DNA from: Opitutales bacterium
Lineage (GTDB): Bacteria > Verrucomicrobiota > Verrucomicrobiia > Opitutales > Seribacteraceae
DNA: 64,000 nt
NCBI GenBank assembly: GCA_029252505.1
Contig: JAQXBH010000093.1
Span: 526-64,525, forward strand
Direction: 5' to 3'
The notes beneath the pieces are model-generated. The model saw only the letters and a list, made by a program, of their open reading frames with translations. It ran no database searches and was not told the DNA's origin. Below, piece after piece: positions 1-56,339 of the stretch. Both the position numbers and the translations under genes were made by a program. Every line of letters begins with the position of its first letter. The stretch's first letter is position 1.

Positions 1-3000
1 TAAGGTCCAGGATCGCTTGGATTTTGCCCCCAAAGTATATCTGCTTCCATCTCTTGGCCATCAGATAACATGACCTTAGCCTTTTGGAATGAAGGAGGAA
101 CTTCACCACCACTAGAAGAACCGAAAAAATATCTCCCAGGTTCAATAATTTTCAATCCAACGACTTCGCCTTCAGAATCAACAATAGCCTCCGCTTTTGC
201 ATCTATCCCCGAACTGCCTGCTGGTTGAATTCCAACAGTAGGACGATTTGAATTTTCGACCTTAAATTTAAAAACATGATTGAGTGGCTTTTCGACTTGC
301 AACCAAACATCGTTCGCAACTAATTGACCACTGATTGTAGGTACATTCACATCACTTGGAGTAACAAGTGGAAGATCGCCAGAAAGACTCGGGATATTCA
401 GGTAGTTATTAAAATTATTTTTTTGGCACTGAAAATACTTTCCTTCATGATAAACAATTTGGCCATAATCGTAAGAAAGGTTAGGAGTCCAATCGTCTCC
501 TTGCTGAGCAGAGCGTGGACCGCTAAGCGTTGTTGAACTACCGACTTTACTAAAATATGCACCCTCTTGAAGTGAATAATCAGGCAAGGTTTGAGATGTC
601 CAATTCGATGCAAAATTAGCGACAGTATTATCAGCAGGAGAAATATCAGTGGCAGTAGTATAATATTTACCATCTTTGTAAGCGTGATCACCTGCGCTAA
701 ATGCAAAACCTTCCTTCCATGTTGTTGCCTCAGTCCAGTTGGTCCCAAAATTTCCCAAAGTATTACTCTCAGCTGTAATTGAGGAATTAGCAAAATAAAG
801 TAATCCGTTCGCAGTCGACATTTCACCAGAAGAAACTGGTACACCAGTTACCCAGGATGCGGGCTTGGTTATATCTTGCTTCGCAATATAAAAATCGTTG
901 TTATCTGGATCGTAAATGTAGTCACCAGACTTTGCCTCAAGCTGTCTAGTAGCCGAATAAATAGGTTCCTTACCTTCAGTAGGTAAAGTATCGCCTAATA
1001 AGAAAACATTCCCATCAGAGCGCTCAGTCAATCCGACAACATTTAATGAAGTACCGCTAAAGTGAGTAGCTTGTATATTTGCATCTGTTAAGGAAAATGA
1101 AAAATCTGACTTAACTGCAAAGTATTTGTTGTTTGCGGAGTCATGAACATACTGACCTTTCTTGAGCTTTACCTGCTCAGGACCGTACCCTACATCAAGT
1201 AAACCGGAAGGTAAAAATACGGAAACCGGATTGGTTGTCGTGCTAACATCTTTGAAGTACTTGTTATTCGCGGGGTTGGCAATCGAGGCGTCTTTAGTTG
1301 CTTCATTTTCAACTGTTGTGGATACATTCAACGCAGATGTACCGAAATTCAAACTTGCTAGTTGCGAGGCGCTAGGAGGATTCGGGGGAGTACCTAATTC
1401 TAGCCAATTGGTAGCAAAGTTGGACTCAGTATTGTTAACAGAAGAAGCGTTGTTAATGGCTTCGTATAATTTACCTTGGTAAGTTGTGGTATCACCTTGG
1501 GAAACCGCTTCACCAGTTTTCCATTCGCCAAGGTGCTTTGATTTTATTTCGTAATAAATACCTTTTGCGTTTGCATCTACTCCATCCCAAACCACATCTC
1601 CCACAGCATACTCTTTTTTAGGGTCAAAAGTACCCCTCATAGAATCAGATGCAACCATAACAGAAGTTCCTTCAGGCGAAATGAAATTACCAGCGAGAAA
1701 CGGAGAGGAATTAAACTTCTCAAGGCTGGCAGGATCCTTTGGCATTGTTGTTGCCGTTGCGGTAGCCTGAGAAAGTACTGAGTTAATGTCTGCAGCTGTT
1801 AAGGAAATTTTCTCATTAGCCAAGTAATATTTATTATTAGTATCATCATGAAGATACTGACCTGCATTAATATCAAAACTTGTTGCCGAAGAAAGTTTTA
1901 GCACCGGTCCGTTGTATGTATGAACATTTCCCTGCGGAGGGAAGCTTTCAACTATATGCTCTAAGTTGGAAGGGTCGACCTGGGTGGAGTCTTGGACCAA
2001 GAAATACCTTCCTTCATGCAAAATTACATCATTGTTTTGAAATTTACCCGTAGATGAAAAGACTTGGCCATTTTCTTTTACAAAACTTCCCTTGATTACA
2101 GAACCACCTTCGGCGGCAGCAACAAGTTTGTATTCTAAAGTTTCTGGATCAAAAAATACCGCTGAATCACTTTCAGATGAATTAATTGAAAATTCGTTTA
2201 CAGGAACTGCAATTCGTTTAACAACATTAGCTAAATCTGTGGCAAGAGCAGCACCTGGGTTGCTAGATTGCTGATATTCTTGAATCTTGCTGGCCACAAG
2301 AATCGATTGCGCATGTGCATTGGCACTTGTAACATCAGCAAATAACTTTCCATCGGGAGTTGAGTAATAAAAGCGATTAGTAGTTCCTGTAACCTCCAAG
2401 TTCCAGTCTTCTCTTGGAACATCGTAACCCGAACCAATTTCCGTCCAATAATCAGTTCCACTGTTTACAGGGGAATGATTTACATTATCCGAACCAATTG
2501 ACTCGAAAAATCTTCCTTCATGTTCAACAATATCTCCCTGTTTGTAAATCGTCAAACGCCTCCAATTCTCCGTGTGCTCGACAGCCAAATTTGATGCGCC
2601 ACTAACTTGGGCAGAAGTAACCGTTAGGTCCCTACTCCAATCACTTCCTTTTACGGAAGAATCAACAATTGCTTTTTCTGACTGAGTAAGTTCCGAATAT
2701 TTGACACCAGGAAACCTAGACGCAGTTTCTATGTTTAACTTTTCTTCCAGTTGCTCAGGGAAATAGTAATTGGGATTCCATTTCGTGGTGTAAGAAGAAG
2801 ATGCTTGATAAGATTCTCCAACACTTCCATGGATGAGTAAATTGCCGTTTGCTGCAATTTCAGCATTAAGAGAAGCTTTTGTGTTTCTGAAAGAATCTGA
2901 AGTTGTTGAACCTCTCACGAATGCCTTATACTCTGAGGTTTCATAGGAAAGAGAATCCGAAACTAACTCAGAATCGTTGTTAATCAGATCTTTCAATCGC

Positions 3001-3614
3001 AGGGCAATGTTGTCGGTGCTTAGGCCTTTGATTTTAGATTGAACCACATACTCTCGACCGTTTAACGAAAAATTGACCACTTCACCCTGATCGATTCTTC
3101 TTTTTCCGTCGTTACCAAGAGTGCCCACTTCATTAAAGGTAAAGGTCTTCTGTTCGCGTTTACCAAGCAATATTTCGGAGTTACCATAATCAGGTTTTAA
3201 CTTGGTTCCTCCAAAAAGTGCCTGTTTTCGATGTGTCGAGTTGACTCGATTAAGTGCTTCCTCGATTAACTGATTGAGCTCAAAACCATAGGTTTCCATT
3301 GCTGGGCCATTAAGACTCGAACCGGCAGTTCTGGCAATTTCTTGACCCCGTTGATTGAGTTCACGCAGTTTATCTAAATTTAGATAACCCGCATCCAAAT
3401 ATTCCTTAGCGTAGGAAGCATTCCTTTGGTATTGGGTTAATTGACCCTTTTGAGTCTCCATTTGGATGACACGACCTAAACGCATCCCGTCGTCTTCTGG
3501 TAAAGTCAGTTTTTGCCCACTTGTGATTTGTGCATCAAGCTTAAATCTTTGTTGATCAAGTTCTTTTATCTTTTGGATAATCGAATTACTTGAACTTATA
3601 TTGGGCAACCTCAT
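1..3614 (-). CDS. flgL: Giant flagellar hook-associated protein 3 (FlgL) with CBM5/12-like repeats; 3' end lies outside the window (>1204 aa)
   Basis: Not in the ORF track because there is no stop in the window. Hand translation from ATG 3614 gives MRLPNISSSNSIIQKIKELDQQRFKLDAQITSGQKLTLPEDDGMR...NSTHRKQALFGGTK (flagellin/FlgL N-domain motifs Q-x-x-SG-x-K-x3-P-x-DD and LFGG). The frame is open in every segment checked down to position 1. It starts 3 bp after the flgK stop. Confidence 0.88.
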   Translation of the reverse strand, partial: MRLPNISSSNSIIQKIKELDQQRFKLDAQITSGQKLTLPEDDGMRLGRVIQMETQKGQLTQYQRNASYAKEYLDAGYLNLDKLRELNQRGQEIARTAGSSLNGPAMETYGFELNQLIEEALNRVNSTHRKQALFGGTKLKPDYGNSEILLGKREQKTFTFNEVGTLGNDGKRRIDQGEVVNFSLNGREYVVQSKIKGLSTDNIALRLKDLINNDSELVSDSLSYETSEYKAFVRGSTTSDSFRNTKASLNAEIAANGNLLIHGSVGESYQASSSYTTKWNPNYYFPEQLEEKLNIETASRFPGVKYSELTQSEKAIVDSSVKGSDWSRDLTVTSAQVSGASNLAVEHTENWRRLTIYKQGDIVEHEGRFFESIGSDNVNHSPVNSGTDYWTEIGSGYDVPREDWNLEVTGTTNRFYYSTPDGKLFADVTSANAHAQSILVASKIQEYQQSSNPGAALATDLANVVKRIAVPVNEFSINSSESDSAVFFDPETLEYKLVAAAEGGSVIKGSFVKENGQVFSSTGKFQNNDVILHEGRYFLVQDSTQVDPSNLEHIVESFPPQGNVHTYNGPVLKLSSATSFDINAGQYLHDDTNNKYYLANEKISLTAADINSVLSQATATATTMPKDPASLEKFNSSPFLAGNFISPEGTSVMVASDSMRGTFDPKKEYAVGDVVWDGVDANAKGIYYEIKSKHLGEWKTGEAVSQGDTTTYQGKLYEAINNASSVNNTESNFATNWLELGTPPNPPSASQLASLNFGTSALNVSTTVENEATKDASIANPANNKYFKDVSTTTNPVSVFLPSGLLDVGYGPEQVKLKKGQYVHDSANNKYFAVKSDFSFSLTDANIQATHFSGTSLNVVGLTERSDGNVFLLGDTLPTEGKEPIYSATRQLEAKSGDYIYDPDNNDFYIAKQDITKPASWVTGVPVSSGEMSTANGLLYFANSSITAESNTLGNFGTNWTEATTWKEGFAFSAGDHAYKDGKYYTTATDISPADNTVANFASNWTSQTLPDYSLQEGAYFSKVGSSTTLSGPRSAQQGDDWTPNLSYDYGQIVYHEGKYFQCQKNNFNNYLNIPSLSGDLPLVTPSDVNVPTISGQLVANDVWLQVEKPLNHVFKFKVENSNRPTVGIQPAGSSGIDAKAEAIVDSEGEVVGLKIIEPGRYFFGSSSGGEVPPSFQKAKVMLSDGQEMEADILWGQNPSDPGP
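600..719 (-). repeat. 40-aa CBM5/12-like repeat in FlgL (WKEGFAFSAGDHAYKDGKYYTTATDISPADNTVANFASNW)
   Basis: Hand translation; same W-to-W spacing and NT-x-x-NF-x-x-NW ending as the copies at 735-854 and 1404-1523. Confidence 0.75.
735..854 (-). repeat. 40-aa CBM5/12-like repeat in FlgL (WVTGVPVSSGEMSTANGLLYFANSSITAESNTLGNFGTNW)
   Basis: Hand translation; tandem with the copy at 600-719. Confidence 0.7.
1404..1523 (-). repeat. 40-aa CBM5/12-like repeat in FlgL (WKTGEAVSQGDTTTYQGKLYEAINNASSVNNTESNFATNW)
   Basis: Hand translation; W-x8-GD-x3-Y-x-G-x-x-Y-x-A pattern. Confidence 0.75.
2445..2564 (-). repeat. 40-aa CBM5/12-like repeat in FlgL (WRRLTIYKQGDIVEHEGRFFESIGSDNVNHSPVNSGTDYW)
   Basis: Best match to the ChtBD3/CBM5/12 consensus W-x5-Y-x2-GD-x-V-x-(Y/H)-x-G-x2-(Y/F)...N...P...W. 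Confidence 0.78.
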
Positions 3615-14036: not shown

Positions 14037-14867
14037 TTAAAGTAGAGATTGAAAGTGCGCTCGGAGTGCTAACACTGAATGGGATAGAATTTGACTAATT
14101 CGTCCTTCTGACAACCCAAAAATATGAGCAATTTCAGAAAGTTTTAATTCTTCATAATAATATAACATGAGAATCTTTTTTTGGGGATCCGGTAACTCCT
14201 TAATTTTGTCCCTAAGCAGAAGGACTTTTTCTCGATACTCGGTCTTATCCAAAGCATCTTGCTCGGTAGGATCGGAGATGGTCTCCGATAATGGAGTAGA
14301 ATCACCATCTGGGGAGCTTGCATGAACCGGGCCGTCAATAGGAATAAAAGTGATGGGTTGAGTTTCCTTTAATAAAACCTCGTATTCAGACTGGGATAAT
14401 TTCAATTCAGTTTTCACTTCCTCCACACTAACAGGACGCTTTAACCGAGACTCCATTTCAGAAATGGTCGACTGCAAAGATCTTGCTTTAGCTCGGTTTG
14501 CACGAGGCAAACAATCAATTTTACGAAGCTCATCAAGAAGGGATCCCTTAATTCTAAGTGCTGCGTAATTCCCAAAAGATTTTCCTTTTGATGGATTAAA
14601 CTGGTTTACTGACACTATTAAAGCCTTAACCGCAATGCCATACATATCCTCAATTTCATAATGATCTGGAAAGTGAAAACGCATACGGGAAACGGTTGAT
14701 TTGACTAACGGTAAGTAGTCTTCAATCAACTGATCTCTTGATTTTTCATCTGACATCGCGACTCTATATTTTTCGGCAGCCTCTTTCATACGCACAGAAG
14801 AAGAGGCAGAGAATTCAGAATCTGACTTTATCTTTTTAATATTTTGTGCGCTCATCTTGTAATGCAA
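14037..14867 (-). CDS. fliA: Flagellar sigma factor FliA (sigma28)
   Basis: YLPLVK, YAALRIKGSLLDELRKID, LYYYEELKLSEIAHIFGLSEGRISQI; the true start may be a later ATG. Confidence 0.95.
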   Translation of the reverse strand: MHYKMSAQNIKKIKSDSEFSASSSVRMKEAAEKYRVAMSDEKSRDQLIEDYLPLVKSTVSRMRFHFPDHYEIEDMYGIAVKALIVSVNQFNPSKGKSFGNYAALRIKGSLLDELRKIDCLPRANRAKARSLQSTISEMESRLKRPVSVEEVKTELKLSQSEYEVLLKETQPITFIPIDGPVHASSPDGDSTPLSETISDPTEQDALDKTEYREKVLLLRDKIKELPDPQKKILMLYYYEELKLSEIAHIFGLSEGRISQILSHSVLALRAHFQSLL

Positions 14868-54034: not shown

Positions 54035-54523
54035 ATGAAAAACTTATTCTTAATTCGACATGCAAAGTCTTCTTGGGAAAGCAGCCAAATTGAAGATCAC
54101 GAACGAACATTAAATGCAAGAGGCTTAAAAGATGCCTCCAATATGGGCAAAACGCTAAAAGCACGTTATACTTCTCCGCAAAAAATAATTTCTTCGACTG
54201 CATGCCGAGCAAAAGAAACAATCGCATTAATCAAAGCTCAATGGTGTCCTTTGCAAAGTGTAGAATATGATAAACTACTATACGAAGGATCCCCATCTAC
54301 AATTTTGGATAAAATTCAAAGATTCCCCCCGGAAATAAGCTCCGTTGCATTAGTATTTCACAACCCTATGGTTACACATCTTGCAAACCTATTGGGATCG
54401 AGTTCAATCCTAAGTATTCCAACATGTGGAGTGGTAATTTTAAGTAGTAAAAACGAGAAATGGAATTTACTCGAAGTAGGAAGCTGTGTGGTCGAAAATT
54501 TTGAATATCCCAAAAAGAGTTAA
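54035..54523 (+). CDS. sixA: Phosphohistidine phosphatase SixA
   Basis: LIRHAKSSW, DHERTLNARG, SSTACRA, FHNP; start at ATG 54035. Confidence 0.9.
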   Translation: MKNLFLIRHAKSSWESSQIEDHERTLNARGLKDASNMGKTLKARYTSPQKIISSTACRAKETIALIKAQWCPLQSVEYDKLLYEGSPSTILDKIQRFPPEISSVALVFHNPMVTHLANLLGSSSILSIPTCGVVILSSKNEKWNLLEVGSCVVENFEYPKKS

Positions 54524-54526
54524 ACG

Positions 54527-54814
54527 CTACAGATAATTTTCTTCGGAAAGAATTCTTTCCGCAACACAACTCAAGGGATCATCGAATTGCTCAAATCCCA
54601 TATTCATAAAATCAGAATCAGAATTTTCTGCTTCTGGCATTTCCATTAGCAGGTCAACCCATTTGCCAATTTCTTCCTTGGAGATTTTTTCAGCAGGTTC
54701 AGAGGGAAATATAATAATATCACTCTGATTGATGTAGCTTGAATTCAAAGGAGTTGATTCATCACTCCTCATCAAGTTTTTTTCCTTCTTTAGATAGTCT
54801 TGAATATATATCAC
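54527..54814 (-). CDS. Small acidic protein, copy 1; divergent FlgM (anti-sigma28)-like
   Basis: Paralogue of 55030-55317 (KEEIGKWVD.LMEMPE and DDPL.CVAERILSEE shared). Alternative start ATG 54772 with an AAGGA SD. Coding status is well supported; the FlgM call is an inference. Confidence 0.6.
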   Translation of the reverse strand: MIYIQDYLKKEKNLMRSDESTPLNSSYINQSDIIIFPSEPAEKISKEEIGKWVDLLMEMPEAENSDSDFMNMGFEQFDDPLSCVAERILSEENYL

Positions 54815-54853
54815 AACAAATTAATAAAATGCCTGTTCGGCAAAATTGGTGGT

Positions 54854-54918
54854 TGTGATTCTAATCGACCTCCTGTGGATTGAACCAAATTTTAATGAGG
54901 CTACATCCATGTAGCTAA
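54854..54918 (-). promoter_or_regulatory. Structured 5' leader with GGA-loop (CsrA/RsmA-type) hairpins, copy 1
   Basis: GCTACA-TGGA-TGTAGC hairpin plus TTCAATCCACAGGAGGTCGATTAGAATCACA (31 bp identical in copy 2). Confidence 0.7.
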
Positions 54919-54923
54919 CAATA

Positions 54924-54950
54924 TGATCGACCATTTTATCTAAATCTTTA
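54924..54950 (-). promoter_or_regulatory. sigma28 (FliA) promoter, copy 1
   Basis: TAAA-N15-GTCGATCA against consensus TAAA-N15-GCCGATAA. Confidence 0.75.
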
Positions 54951-55029
54951 ACGAAAAGTTGATATTCAACCTCTTACTAAACTTCGTCGATTTCATAATA
55001 AGATACCTAGTTCGTCAGAATATTGCTTA

Positions 55030-55317
55030 CTAAAAGTAGCTTTCTTCCGAAAGAATTCTTTCTGCAACACAGGTCAATGGATCATCAAGTTCGTTGTATC
55101 CTTCGTCTACGAACATAGAAGGCGAAGTTTTAGGTTCAGGCATCTCCATTAATTGATCTACCCATTTACCAATTTCTTCTTTGGTTACATCCTCCTCTGC
55201 TTCAGCGGGGAATGAAATCACATCCCGTTGGGTACTAAAATCAGATGCAGTTTGGCTTGATTCATCACTCATAGTTAACAATTCCTTTTTTTCCAGATAG
55301 TCTTGAATAAATATCAC
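55030..55317 (-). CDS. Small acidic protein, copy 2; divergent FlgM (anti-sigma28)-like
   Basis: Paralogue of 54527-54814; alternative start ATG 55272 with an AAGGA SD. Confidence 0.6.
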   Translation of the reverse strand: MIFIQDYLEKKELLTMSDESSQTASDFSTQRDVISFPAEAEEDVTKEEIGKWVDQLMEMPEPKTSPSMFVDEGYNELDDPLTCVAERILSEESYF

Positions 55318-55355
55318 AACAATTTGAATTTAATGTCCTAGACATTATTATTGGC

Positions 55356-55420
55356 TGTGATTCTAATCGACCTCCTGTGGATTGAATCAGTAATAAATGA
55401 GGCTGCATCCTTGCGGCTAA
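55356..55420 (-). promoter_or_regulatory. Structured 5' leader with GGA-loop (CsrA/RsmA-type) hairpins, copy 2
   Basis: GCCGCA-AGGA-TGCAGC hairpin plus the same 31-bp block as copy 1. Confidence 0.7.
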
Positions 55421-55426
55421 TTAACA

Positions 55427-55453
55427 TAATCGGTCGTCAAACTCGCAACTTTA
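55427..55453 (-). promoter_or_regulatory. sigma28 (FliA) promoter, copy 2
   Basis: TAAA-N15-ACCGATTA; the spacer sequence differs from copy 1 but its length is conserved. Confidence 0.75.
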
Positions 55454-55523
55454 GTAAAATAGTCATTTTTTATTTTTTCTGAATGAACTTTTCATTTACC
55501 TAAGAAAAAGCGACACTATCAAT

Positions 55524-56339
55524 ATGACAAAAAAATTATCCAAAGCATATTCGAATAAAGAGTTTCTTAACAGCCATGAAGCACGACCAATCCGAGTACA
55601 ATGTGAATTAATTGAACCAGAAGTTCGGTTACGTGAACAGGGAGTTGAAAACTCAATCGTTTTTTTTGGATCTGCTCGCTCAAAACCTCTGGAGAAAGCT
55701 CAGGATGAACTATCATTATTCAAAAAAAGCCTGTCTTCAAAAATAACGATTTCAGATCAGGATCAAGCGGAGCTAGCCCAAAAAGAAAGTATCGTTTTAT
55801 TATCAAAATACTATGATGAAGCCGTATTACTTTCGCGTCGCCTAACCGAGTGGTCCGATACTAAAGAAGTGCCAGGAAATAAATATTATGTTTGTTCAGG
55901 AGGTGGACCAGGCATGATGGAAGCGGCAAATAAAGGTGCCAATGACGCCAAAGGTAAATCAATCGCATTAGGCATAAGCCTTCCTTTCGAACAAGGAGTG
56001 AATCAATATGCGACCCCAGAATTATCCTTTGAATTTCATTATTTCTTTGTCCGTAAATTCTATTTTCTTTACCACGCAAAAGCAGTGGTAGTCTTCCCTG
56101 GTGGATTTGGGACAATGGATGAACTTTTTGAAACATTAACATTAATCCAAACCAAAAAACTGGGTAAACAAATGCCTATCGTTTTATACGGGCGCGAATT
56201 TTGGGAAGGACTAATCAATTTTGAACAATTTATTAAATGGGGTGTTATCTCACCCAAAGATATAGAATTATTTAAAATTGTAGATGATGTGGATGAGGCA
56301 TTCTCGCTCATTACCAAAAACCTAAAAGAAATTAGTTAA
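55524..56339 (+). CDS. LOG-family (TIGR00730) nucleotide phosphoribohydrolase
   Basis: FFGSAR, SGGGPGMMEAANKGA, FHYFFVRK, PGGFGTMDE. Confidence 0.93.
   Translation: MTKKLSKAYSNKEFLNSHEARPIRVQCELIEPEVRLREQGVENSIVFFGSARSKPLEKAQDELSLFKKSLSSKITISDQDQAELAQKESIVLLSKYYDEAVLLSRRLTEWSDTKEVPGNKYYVCSGGGPGMMEAANKGANDAKGKSIALGISLPFEQGVNQYATPELSFEFHYFFVRKFYFLYHAKAVVVFPGGFGTMDELFETLTLIQTKKLGKQMPIVLYGREFWEGLINFEQFIKWGVISPKDIELFKIVDDVDEAFSLITKNLKEIS

Follow-up and report, generated by a model that had tools for sequence, protein, structure and literature searches.

Tandem sigma-28-type leaders with conserved GGA-loop hairpins precede putative FlgM-like genes in marine Verrucomicrobiota and are candidate targets of CsrA

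Two paralogous genes lie in tandem on the minus strand of a 64,000-nt stretch of DNA (the window) from the Opitutales bacterium assembly GCA_029252505.1 (contig JAQXBH010000093.1, here C142). Copy A (54527..54814) encodes a 95-aa acidic protein that may be FlgM-like; it starts with a GTG codon (54814-54812) and has an in-frame ATG at codon 15. Copy B (55030..55317, GTG start at 55317-55315) encodes a 95-aa paralogue with 58% protein identity to the former. Each ORF is preceded by about 140 nt of alignable upstream sequence. The two leaders are 74% identical, a value that reaches 80% in their first 72 nt and 100% in a 31-nt block which has no other occurrence in the genome, and the coding sequences are 68% identical. 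An earlier reading of this DNA, made from the sequence alone (the sequence-only reading), had described the leader as more conserved than the gene that it precedes, which is true but modest (74% vs 68%), and had reported the identical block, which is indeed exact in both copies and exposes AGGAG in a hairpin loop. A second conserved block seen in that reading corresponds to the protein N-terminus, MI(Y/H/F)(I/L/F)xDYL. Two further candidates were rejected: conserved small upstream ORFs in the leader, as their reading frames differ between copies A and B, and a stretch conserved past the stop codon, which is the C-terminus of a convergent histidine-phosphatase gene and not an RNA motif. Near the 3' end of both genes, the minus strand also carries a perfect palindrome, GGAAAGAATTCTTTCC, of 16 nt in copy A (54545-54560) and 14 nt in copy B (55049-55062); it falls within the codons of a conserved ERILSE motif and tracks codon choice in the relatives.

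Both transcription units begin with a sigma-28-type promoter on the minus strand. That of copy A (54923..54951) reads TTAAAG, with TAAA at 54950-54947, then 15 nt and GTCGATCAT (54931-54923); that of copy B (55426..55454) reads CTAAAG, with TAAA at 55453-55450, then 15 nt and ACCGATTAT (55434-55426). The promoter motif is invariant across the leaders of 32 relatives. At the scale of the genome, a strict pattern ([CT]TAAAG-N14-16-CGAYYAT) has 17 matches, compared to three for the reversed pattern used as a control, and three of these matches precede giant flagellin genes (788-967 aa). A looser sigma-28 pattern was uninformative (60 matches vs 58 in the control), hence only the strict one discriminates. 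The window also contains fliA, the gene of sigma-28 (14052..14729, C142:14577-15254, minus strand; TIGR02479, 191.6 bits, above the cut-off; FliA/WhiG family), and its product is predicted to be the factor that reads both promoters. The proposal of sigma-28-type promoters is thus supported: TAAA-N15-GTCGAT and TAAA-N15-ACCGAT are in place, the strict motif is common to flagellin genes and fliA is present. In most relatives, the -35 element is immediately preceded by an A-run and then a T-run (minus strand, window 55455-55480 and 54952-54975), perhaps a UP-like element or what is left of a terminator.

The leader contains three helices and a variable hairpin, all on the minus strand. The first helix, HP1, is GCTACA-TGGA-TGTAGC in copy A (54900..54915), with GGA in the tetraloop and a CANGGAUG core, and GCCGCA-AGGA-TGCAGC in copy B (55402..55417); the compensatory A-U to G-C change between them had been recognized in the sequence-only reading, and copy B adds one C.A mismatch. 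The second, HP2, lies in the 31-nt block (54854-54884 in copy A, 55355-55385 in copy B). In copy A (54859..54884) it is TTCAATC-CAC-AGGAG-GTC-GATT(A)GAA, shows the invariant ACAGGAGGT and has its AGGAGG at 54874-54869; in copy B (55360..55385) the AGGAGG is at 55376-55371. The third helix, P3, had been overlooked. It is an 8-bp stem that pairs the GTG start: in copy A (54810..54859), ATCACAAC (54859-54852) pairs with GTTGTGAT (54817-54810) and the start codon is paired inside, and in copy B (55313..55361) ATCACAGC (55361-55354) pairs with GTTGTGAT (55320-55313), with the GTG likewise paired. P3 encloses hairpin 3, already noted in both copies, whose sequence is variable (TGCC-GAACA-GGCA at 54842-54830 in copy A, AATGTC-TAG-GACATT at 55346-55332 in copy B).

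The conservation of this fold was studied in 32 homologous leaders from about 30 same-genus genomes. Over the three helices (22 pairs), 96.4% of the positions are paired and nine pairs changed on both sides. The observed pairing and covariation were reached by 0 of 500 shuffled controls, and sliding the 3' partners reduced pairing to 20-47%. HP1 (consensus GYYRCA-NGGA-UGYRRC) has changes on both sides at three of its six pairs and an invariant GGA; HP2 (UUCRRUC-CAC-AGGAG-GUM-GAYY(N)GAA; 97.9% paired) has them at four of nine pairs, shows AGGAG in its loop, as had been proposed, and has an invariant GGA; and P3 (AUCACARY with RYUGUGAU; 99.1% paired) has two such pairs. Hairpin 3 is found at the same place, with at least 4 bp and differing sequences, in 30 of the 32 leaders. 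RNAalifold independently recovered the same three helices from the leader alignment. The GGA and the ACAGGAGGT / ACAGGAGGU motifs are invariant or nearly so, and the full AGGAGG hexamer is present in 31 leaders, the sole variant being an AGGATG (L020) that keeps the GGA. In 27 of the 32 leaders, both GGA are separated by 33-35 nt; the remaining five differ, which is read as extra GGA triplets caught by the script. The second GGA lies 57-63 nt upstream of the conserved GTG. The leader pattern is therefore more than chance. Single-sequence folding is unexceptional (z -1.4 and -1.0) and its minimum-energy structure favours a long-range helix over HP2; this structure was set aside because the comparative data favour HP2 and the z-scores are weak. 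A pairing between AGGAGGTC and codons 6-8 (GACTATCT), as a pseudoknot or an anti-SD interaction, was also rejected (77.7% paired vs 77.1% in shuffled sequences, with no both-side changes). When searched with the covariance models of Rfam 15 (E up to 10), the leader gave chance-level matches (E > 1), far below the gathering scores.

Leader DNA is present in 31 of 44 same-genus genomes, among them all 14 high-quality ones, and in most of them as a single copy. A sister genus with csrA in its genomes has the module too; searches of two genomes from other families that do encode CsrA, and of 97 other genomes of the order, did not find it. This distribution bears on the simplest account of the similarity of both leaders, namely that it reflects nothing more than a recent tandem duplication, or gene conversion, and plays no part in regulation. 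The identical 31-nt block common to both copies would fit such an account, as would the case of L018, in which both copies have the same lineage-specific variants of the block, suggesting concerted evolution. Yet a leader with compensatory changes has been kept across the genus, where it is mostly single-copy, and in the sister genus; the cross-genus covariation refutes this account in practice and leaves it a very small probability.

The position of the start codon was evaluated in the same set of sequences. All 32 have an ORF of 86-97 aa that starts with the GTG in the 3' arm of P3. Since an in-frame ATG before codon 50 is missing in 17 of these ORFs, and 26 sequences have no other in-frame start upstream of the GTG, the true start is the GTG paired in P3. 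The subclade of the source genome has an extra in-frame ATG at codon 14-15, preceded by GAGGA or AAGGA, motifs that are found ahead of an internal ATG in about half of the sequences only. The database gene calls for this protein are divided between 81 aa and 95 aa. The AGGAGG of HP2 lies 54 nt before the GTG, in agreement with the distance of about 55 nt from the first start codon given by the sequence-only reading, and there is no purine-rich motif near the GTG itself. In the source genome, an SD-like tetramer is found at -16 to -7 in 8.9% of long ORFs, compared to 6.2% in a background window; the 16S 3' end, which would give the anti-SD, is unassembled in this MAG. As this genome seldom uses Shine-Dalgarno sequences, the lack of one near the GTG is normal there, and the AGGAGG, which the sequence-only reading had excluded as an SD, may or may not act as one.

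These observations introduce the main rival to a CsrA-based interpretation, a structured 5' UTR that works independently of CsrA. In that case, P3 would mask the start and the AGGAGG in the HP2 loop would be a displaced SD or a standby site that the HP2-P3 junction keeps close to the start, or another factor (the encoded protein, FliW or temperature) would act on the fold; the GGA would be conserved for the ribosome. The conservation of the complete hexamer, which is more than CsrA needs, a GTG devoid of a nearby SD and the pairing of the start codon by P3 in every sequence agree with this possibility. So does the strong AAGGAGGA near the flagellin starts, from which it follows that the ribosomes probably can read an SD. 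Nevertheless, the low SD usage of the genome implies that an SD is not needed for initiation, and the only variant of the hexamer, AGGATG, is one that retains GGA and breaks the SD. Moreover, even if P3 melted in part, a hairpin and no fewer than 14 nt would still separate AGGAGG from GUG, and this hypothesis has no role for HP1, yet HP1 covaries, keeps its GGA and maintains a fixed 34-35 nt to HP2. We consider this explanation unlikely, although it is the one that competes most seriously with control by CsrA.

The interpretation that involves CsrA depends on the presence of this protein and of its partner FliW in the host. Neither csrA nor fliW was found in the source assembly, which is 87% complete; for csrA, this is the outcome that the sequence-only reading had named as refuting its proposal. 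The absence can be specifically accounted for. The suggestion made in that reading that both genes often lie after flgL is correct for the relative G012, in which the gene order is flgN, flgK, a 1394-aa flgL-like gene, fliW and csrA. At its very start, contig C142 cuts a flgL-like hook-associated ORF of 1379 aa (window 1-3614; C142:3-4139; minus strand); this ORF is a homologue of the G012 flgL-like gene (80% identical), and the contig starts inside it, about 20 codons from the end of the gene. The expected site of fliW-csrA therefore coincides with the contig break and would fall just off the contig. From this synteny with G012, we infer that the source species does carry fliW-csrA. Within the genus, 15 of 18 genomes have CsrA; FliW was detected in 26 of 30, among them all the good ones (10/10), and fliW always adjoins csrA. 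The best matches of the genus CsrA are the FliW-type proteins of Geobacillus (5DMB) and Bacillus (1T3O), and its residues for RNA binding are conserved. As for the RNA, the CA-N-GGA-UG of HP1 matches the CsrA/RsmE optimum, CANGGANG, and the SELEX consensus RUACARGGAUGU.

A comparison with flagellin leaders, which had also been proposed, revealed GGA loops there too. In the source genome, these leaders have CAAGGAG and CAAGGAC in hairpin loops as well as AAGGAGGA at the start. The genome has 33 Flagellin_N matches, some of which are giant flagellins (788-967 aa; e.g. on C124, C135, C147), whose sigma-28 promoters feed leaders with three CAAGGA hairpins. GGA-loop hairpins at most 150 nt from strict promoters show a modest excess (6 vs 1.9 expected), and the main flagellin leaders use hairpins other than those of the module described here.

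The nature of the encoded protein is more difficult to evaluate. Searches in Pfam, by sequence in the PDB and in the ESM Atlas returned no usable match; the Pfam FlgM model (PF04316) hit none of 25 family members, with E values up to 10 allowed, and a canonical Pfam FlgM was not found in 31 genomes of the genus. Over its C-terminal 49 columns, the family matches aligned Opitutales FlgM proteins from end to end, albeit weakly (hhalign probability 43%, E 2.5e-4), and a pairwise BLASTP gave an E-value of 0.007. In the AlphaFold (AF2) model, the N-terminal half is disordered and helices span 46-58, 69-73 and 80-94; its pLDDT of 63 is too low for a fold search. The family is restricted to one lineage (50 representative clusters in 1.84 billion proteins) and comes from marine Opitutia/Puniceicoccaceae MAGs, including records titled 'Candidatus Seribacter sulfatis'. 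It resembles FlgM (PF04316) in its length of about 95 aa, its predicted disordered N-terminal half followed by C-terminal helices and its sigma-28-type promoter; it differs in that the Pfam model misses it, in its narrow distribution and in that its binding to sigma-28 is putative. The designation of these genes as FlgM-like by the sequence-only reading is thus plausible given the end-to-end C-terminal alignment, but the Pfam FlgM model lends it no match; we consider that it has roughly even odds and is not established. An anti-sigma-28 role of the protein is accordingly used below as a supposition.

Taken together, the promoter, the covarying GGA hairpins and the conserved CsrA-FliW pair of the genus point to each copy being a sigma-28-driven, CsrA-gated 5' leader, to which we assign a probability of roughly 60%. 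Each copy would be a late (class-3) flagellar transcription unit, transcribed by sigma-28 (FliA) from a start a few bases before HP1. The resulting leader of about 105 nt would comprise four elements (HP1, HP2, P3 and the variable hairpin within P3), with the HP2 loop ACAGGAGGU at a fixed 34-35 nt past the first GGA and P3 directly abutting HP2 and pairing the GUG start. A dimer of the FliW-partnered CsrA would bind both GGA loops and, once bound, would hold the leader closed and/or keep the 30S subunit off the only strong purine-rich site, so that free CsrA would prevent the synthesis of the small FlgM-like protein. When flagellin is exported, FliW would be released and would capture CsrA, and translation would go ahead. 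Both the binding of CsrA to the leader and the direction of the control, repression, are thus conjectural, and the block of initiation in particular is an extrapolation because the second GGA lies far upstream of the start, whereas the corresponding site of hag and flaA extends over the ribosome-binding site. A more specific version, that a FliW-type CsrA gates the synthesis of an anti-sigma-28 factor by means of two loops that act remotely, stacking on the stem that hides an SD-less GUG, is tentative and in our opinion rather doubtful. If it were true, the flagellin-level checkpoint (FliW-CsrA) would be wired directly into the hook-completion checkpoint (FlgM-sigma-28) in an organism with about 30 flagellin genes.

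Work on control by CsrA-FliW has dealt with Firmicutes, Campylobacterota and spirochaetes, and nearly always with flagellin as the target. The leaders described here have in common with those systems a sigma-28/SigD-type promoter and at least two GGA motifs, both in hairpin loops, but no GGA site overlaps the ribosome-binding site or the start codon. The flaA leader of Campylobacter jejuni belongs to a sigma-28-dependent late transcript and has two ANGGA stem-loops backed by compensatory changes, in the context of a regulon with a FliW-partnered CsrA and no CsrB-type sRNA, all of which recalls what is seen or predicted in the present case (PMC4894983, Dugar et al. 2016). Unlike here, the flaA leader is 45 nt long and its second loop lies over the ribosome-binding site (PMC4894983), compared to about 105 nt and a second loop 57-63 nt before the start; the separate start-codon stem, the small FlgM-like protein as a target and the phylum, Verrucomicrobiota, also set the present leaders apart. 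The hag leader of Bacillus subtilis similarly has a SigD/sigma-28 promoter and a bipartite CsrA site with an upstream hairpin site, the CsrA sites in our leaders being predicted, and fliW-csrA follows flgK-flgL in that species as in G012 (PMC6529632, citing Yakhnin 2007 and Mukherjee 2011). Contrary to our leaders, the second site of hag overlaps the SD, hag itself is regarded as the main target and there is no stem sequestering the start codon (PMC6529632). To judge from this comparison of sequences, the leader is different from hag and flaA: it lacks the overlap of a CsrA site with the ribosome-binding site and has a start-codon stem instead. It is probably a variant of the known flagellin-type translation switch, placed on a putative anti-sigma-28 protein.

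Split ribosome-binding sites, of the type of phage T4 gene 38, have a strong SD-like element separated from the start by a stable hairpin. The arrangement in our leaders is similar in this respect, but here the start is inside a stem, the SD-like element occupies the loop of a hairpin of its own and the host seldom uses SD sequences.

The sequence-only reading had presented such a feedback loop as undescribed in this group. None was found for Verrucomicrobiota in the literature that was searched, but the binding of CsrA to flgM mRNA is known in C. jejuni, where CsrA binds class 2 and 3 flagellar mRNAs (PMC4894983). The FlgM and CsrA of B. subtilis work in parallel, neither controlling the other (PMC6529632). 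Were CsrA binding true, a covariation-supported motif from outside Rfam would put the CsrA-FliW logic on a putative substitute for FlgM in marine Verrucomicrobiota, with a different geometry (a remote GGA loop and a start-codon stem) in a genome where Shine-Dalgarno sequences are hardly used. Its confirmation would indicate that two flagellar checkpoints can be coupled post-transcriptionally, provide a test case for a CsrA that represses initiation without covering the ribosome-binding site, and give a name to an orphan protein family in a clade otherwise devoid of FlgM.

The module is also present outside the tandem locus. Searches with two covariance models, one for the whole leader (R1) and one for HP1-HP2 alone (R2), found two or three copies per genome: those of the small gene and a divergent one, which precedes by about 380 nt a flagellin paralogue bearing a lectin-like insert. 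The position of this divergent copy speaks for control by CsrA; the small number of copies speaks against it, as do the different hairpins of the main flagellin leaders. In the source genome (G000), this third copy (sigma-28 promoter, HP1 and AGGAGG) lies outside the window on the minus strand (C118:1795-1908; L050:1501-1614). The same arrangement before the flagellin paralogue exists in four genomes (the source genome, G012, G006 and G052), and the 530-nt stretch that contains it is 93% identical to that of G012.

Several of these features could suggest that the leaders are FliA-induced CsrA decoys, either short terminated RNAs or mRNA leaders, that would draw CsrA off the flagellin mRNAs by titration. 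HP1 is a near-optimal predicted CsrA site at the very 5' end, the module is duplicated in tandem with its 31-nt block kept identical, and the third copy is far from the next gene; besides, in C. jejuni the flaA mRNA not only responds to CsrA but also titrates it (PMC4894983). Yet each RNA would have just two GGA hairpins, unlike the sponge sRNAs of the CsrB/RsmZ type, which combine many GGA stem-loops with a terminator of their own. No terminator-like site exists in 54300-55600, nor is there a conserved U-tract after hairpin 3 in the 32-leader alignment. The fold takes in the start codon of a conserved ORF, with which the leader is continuous, and a leader that is single-copy in most genomes would have to compete with some 30 flagellin genes. 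The sponge-RNA alternative of the sequence-only reading is thus unsupported and we regard it as improbable, more so than CsrA-independent control.

Metatranscriptome contigs from three studies (runs X15-X18) cover 54733-55401, bridging copy B into the leader of copy A, and the neighbouring genes are covered too. The ends of these contigs coincide with the 31-nt repeat, where a k-mer assembly breaks, so that neither a 5' end nor an expression level can be read from them; they attest to presence in RNA libraries, nothing more. Their extension across the spacer (window 54854-55401) points to transcription reading through from unit to unit, or to DNA carried over into the RNA libraries.

An extra GACA-AGGA-TGTC hairpin lies about 110 nt before the ATG of the flagellin paralogue with the lectin insert. 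In the sister genus (G099), one locus (L054:557-630, on C62) has HP1-HP2 followed directly by AAGGAGGA-N7-GTG of an unrelated ORF, and in another (L052:785-908, on C120) the homologous small ORF starts about 170 nt past P3. The run and record labels give the habitat of the source as 'marine/seawater'.
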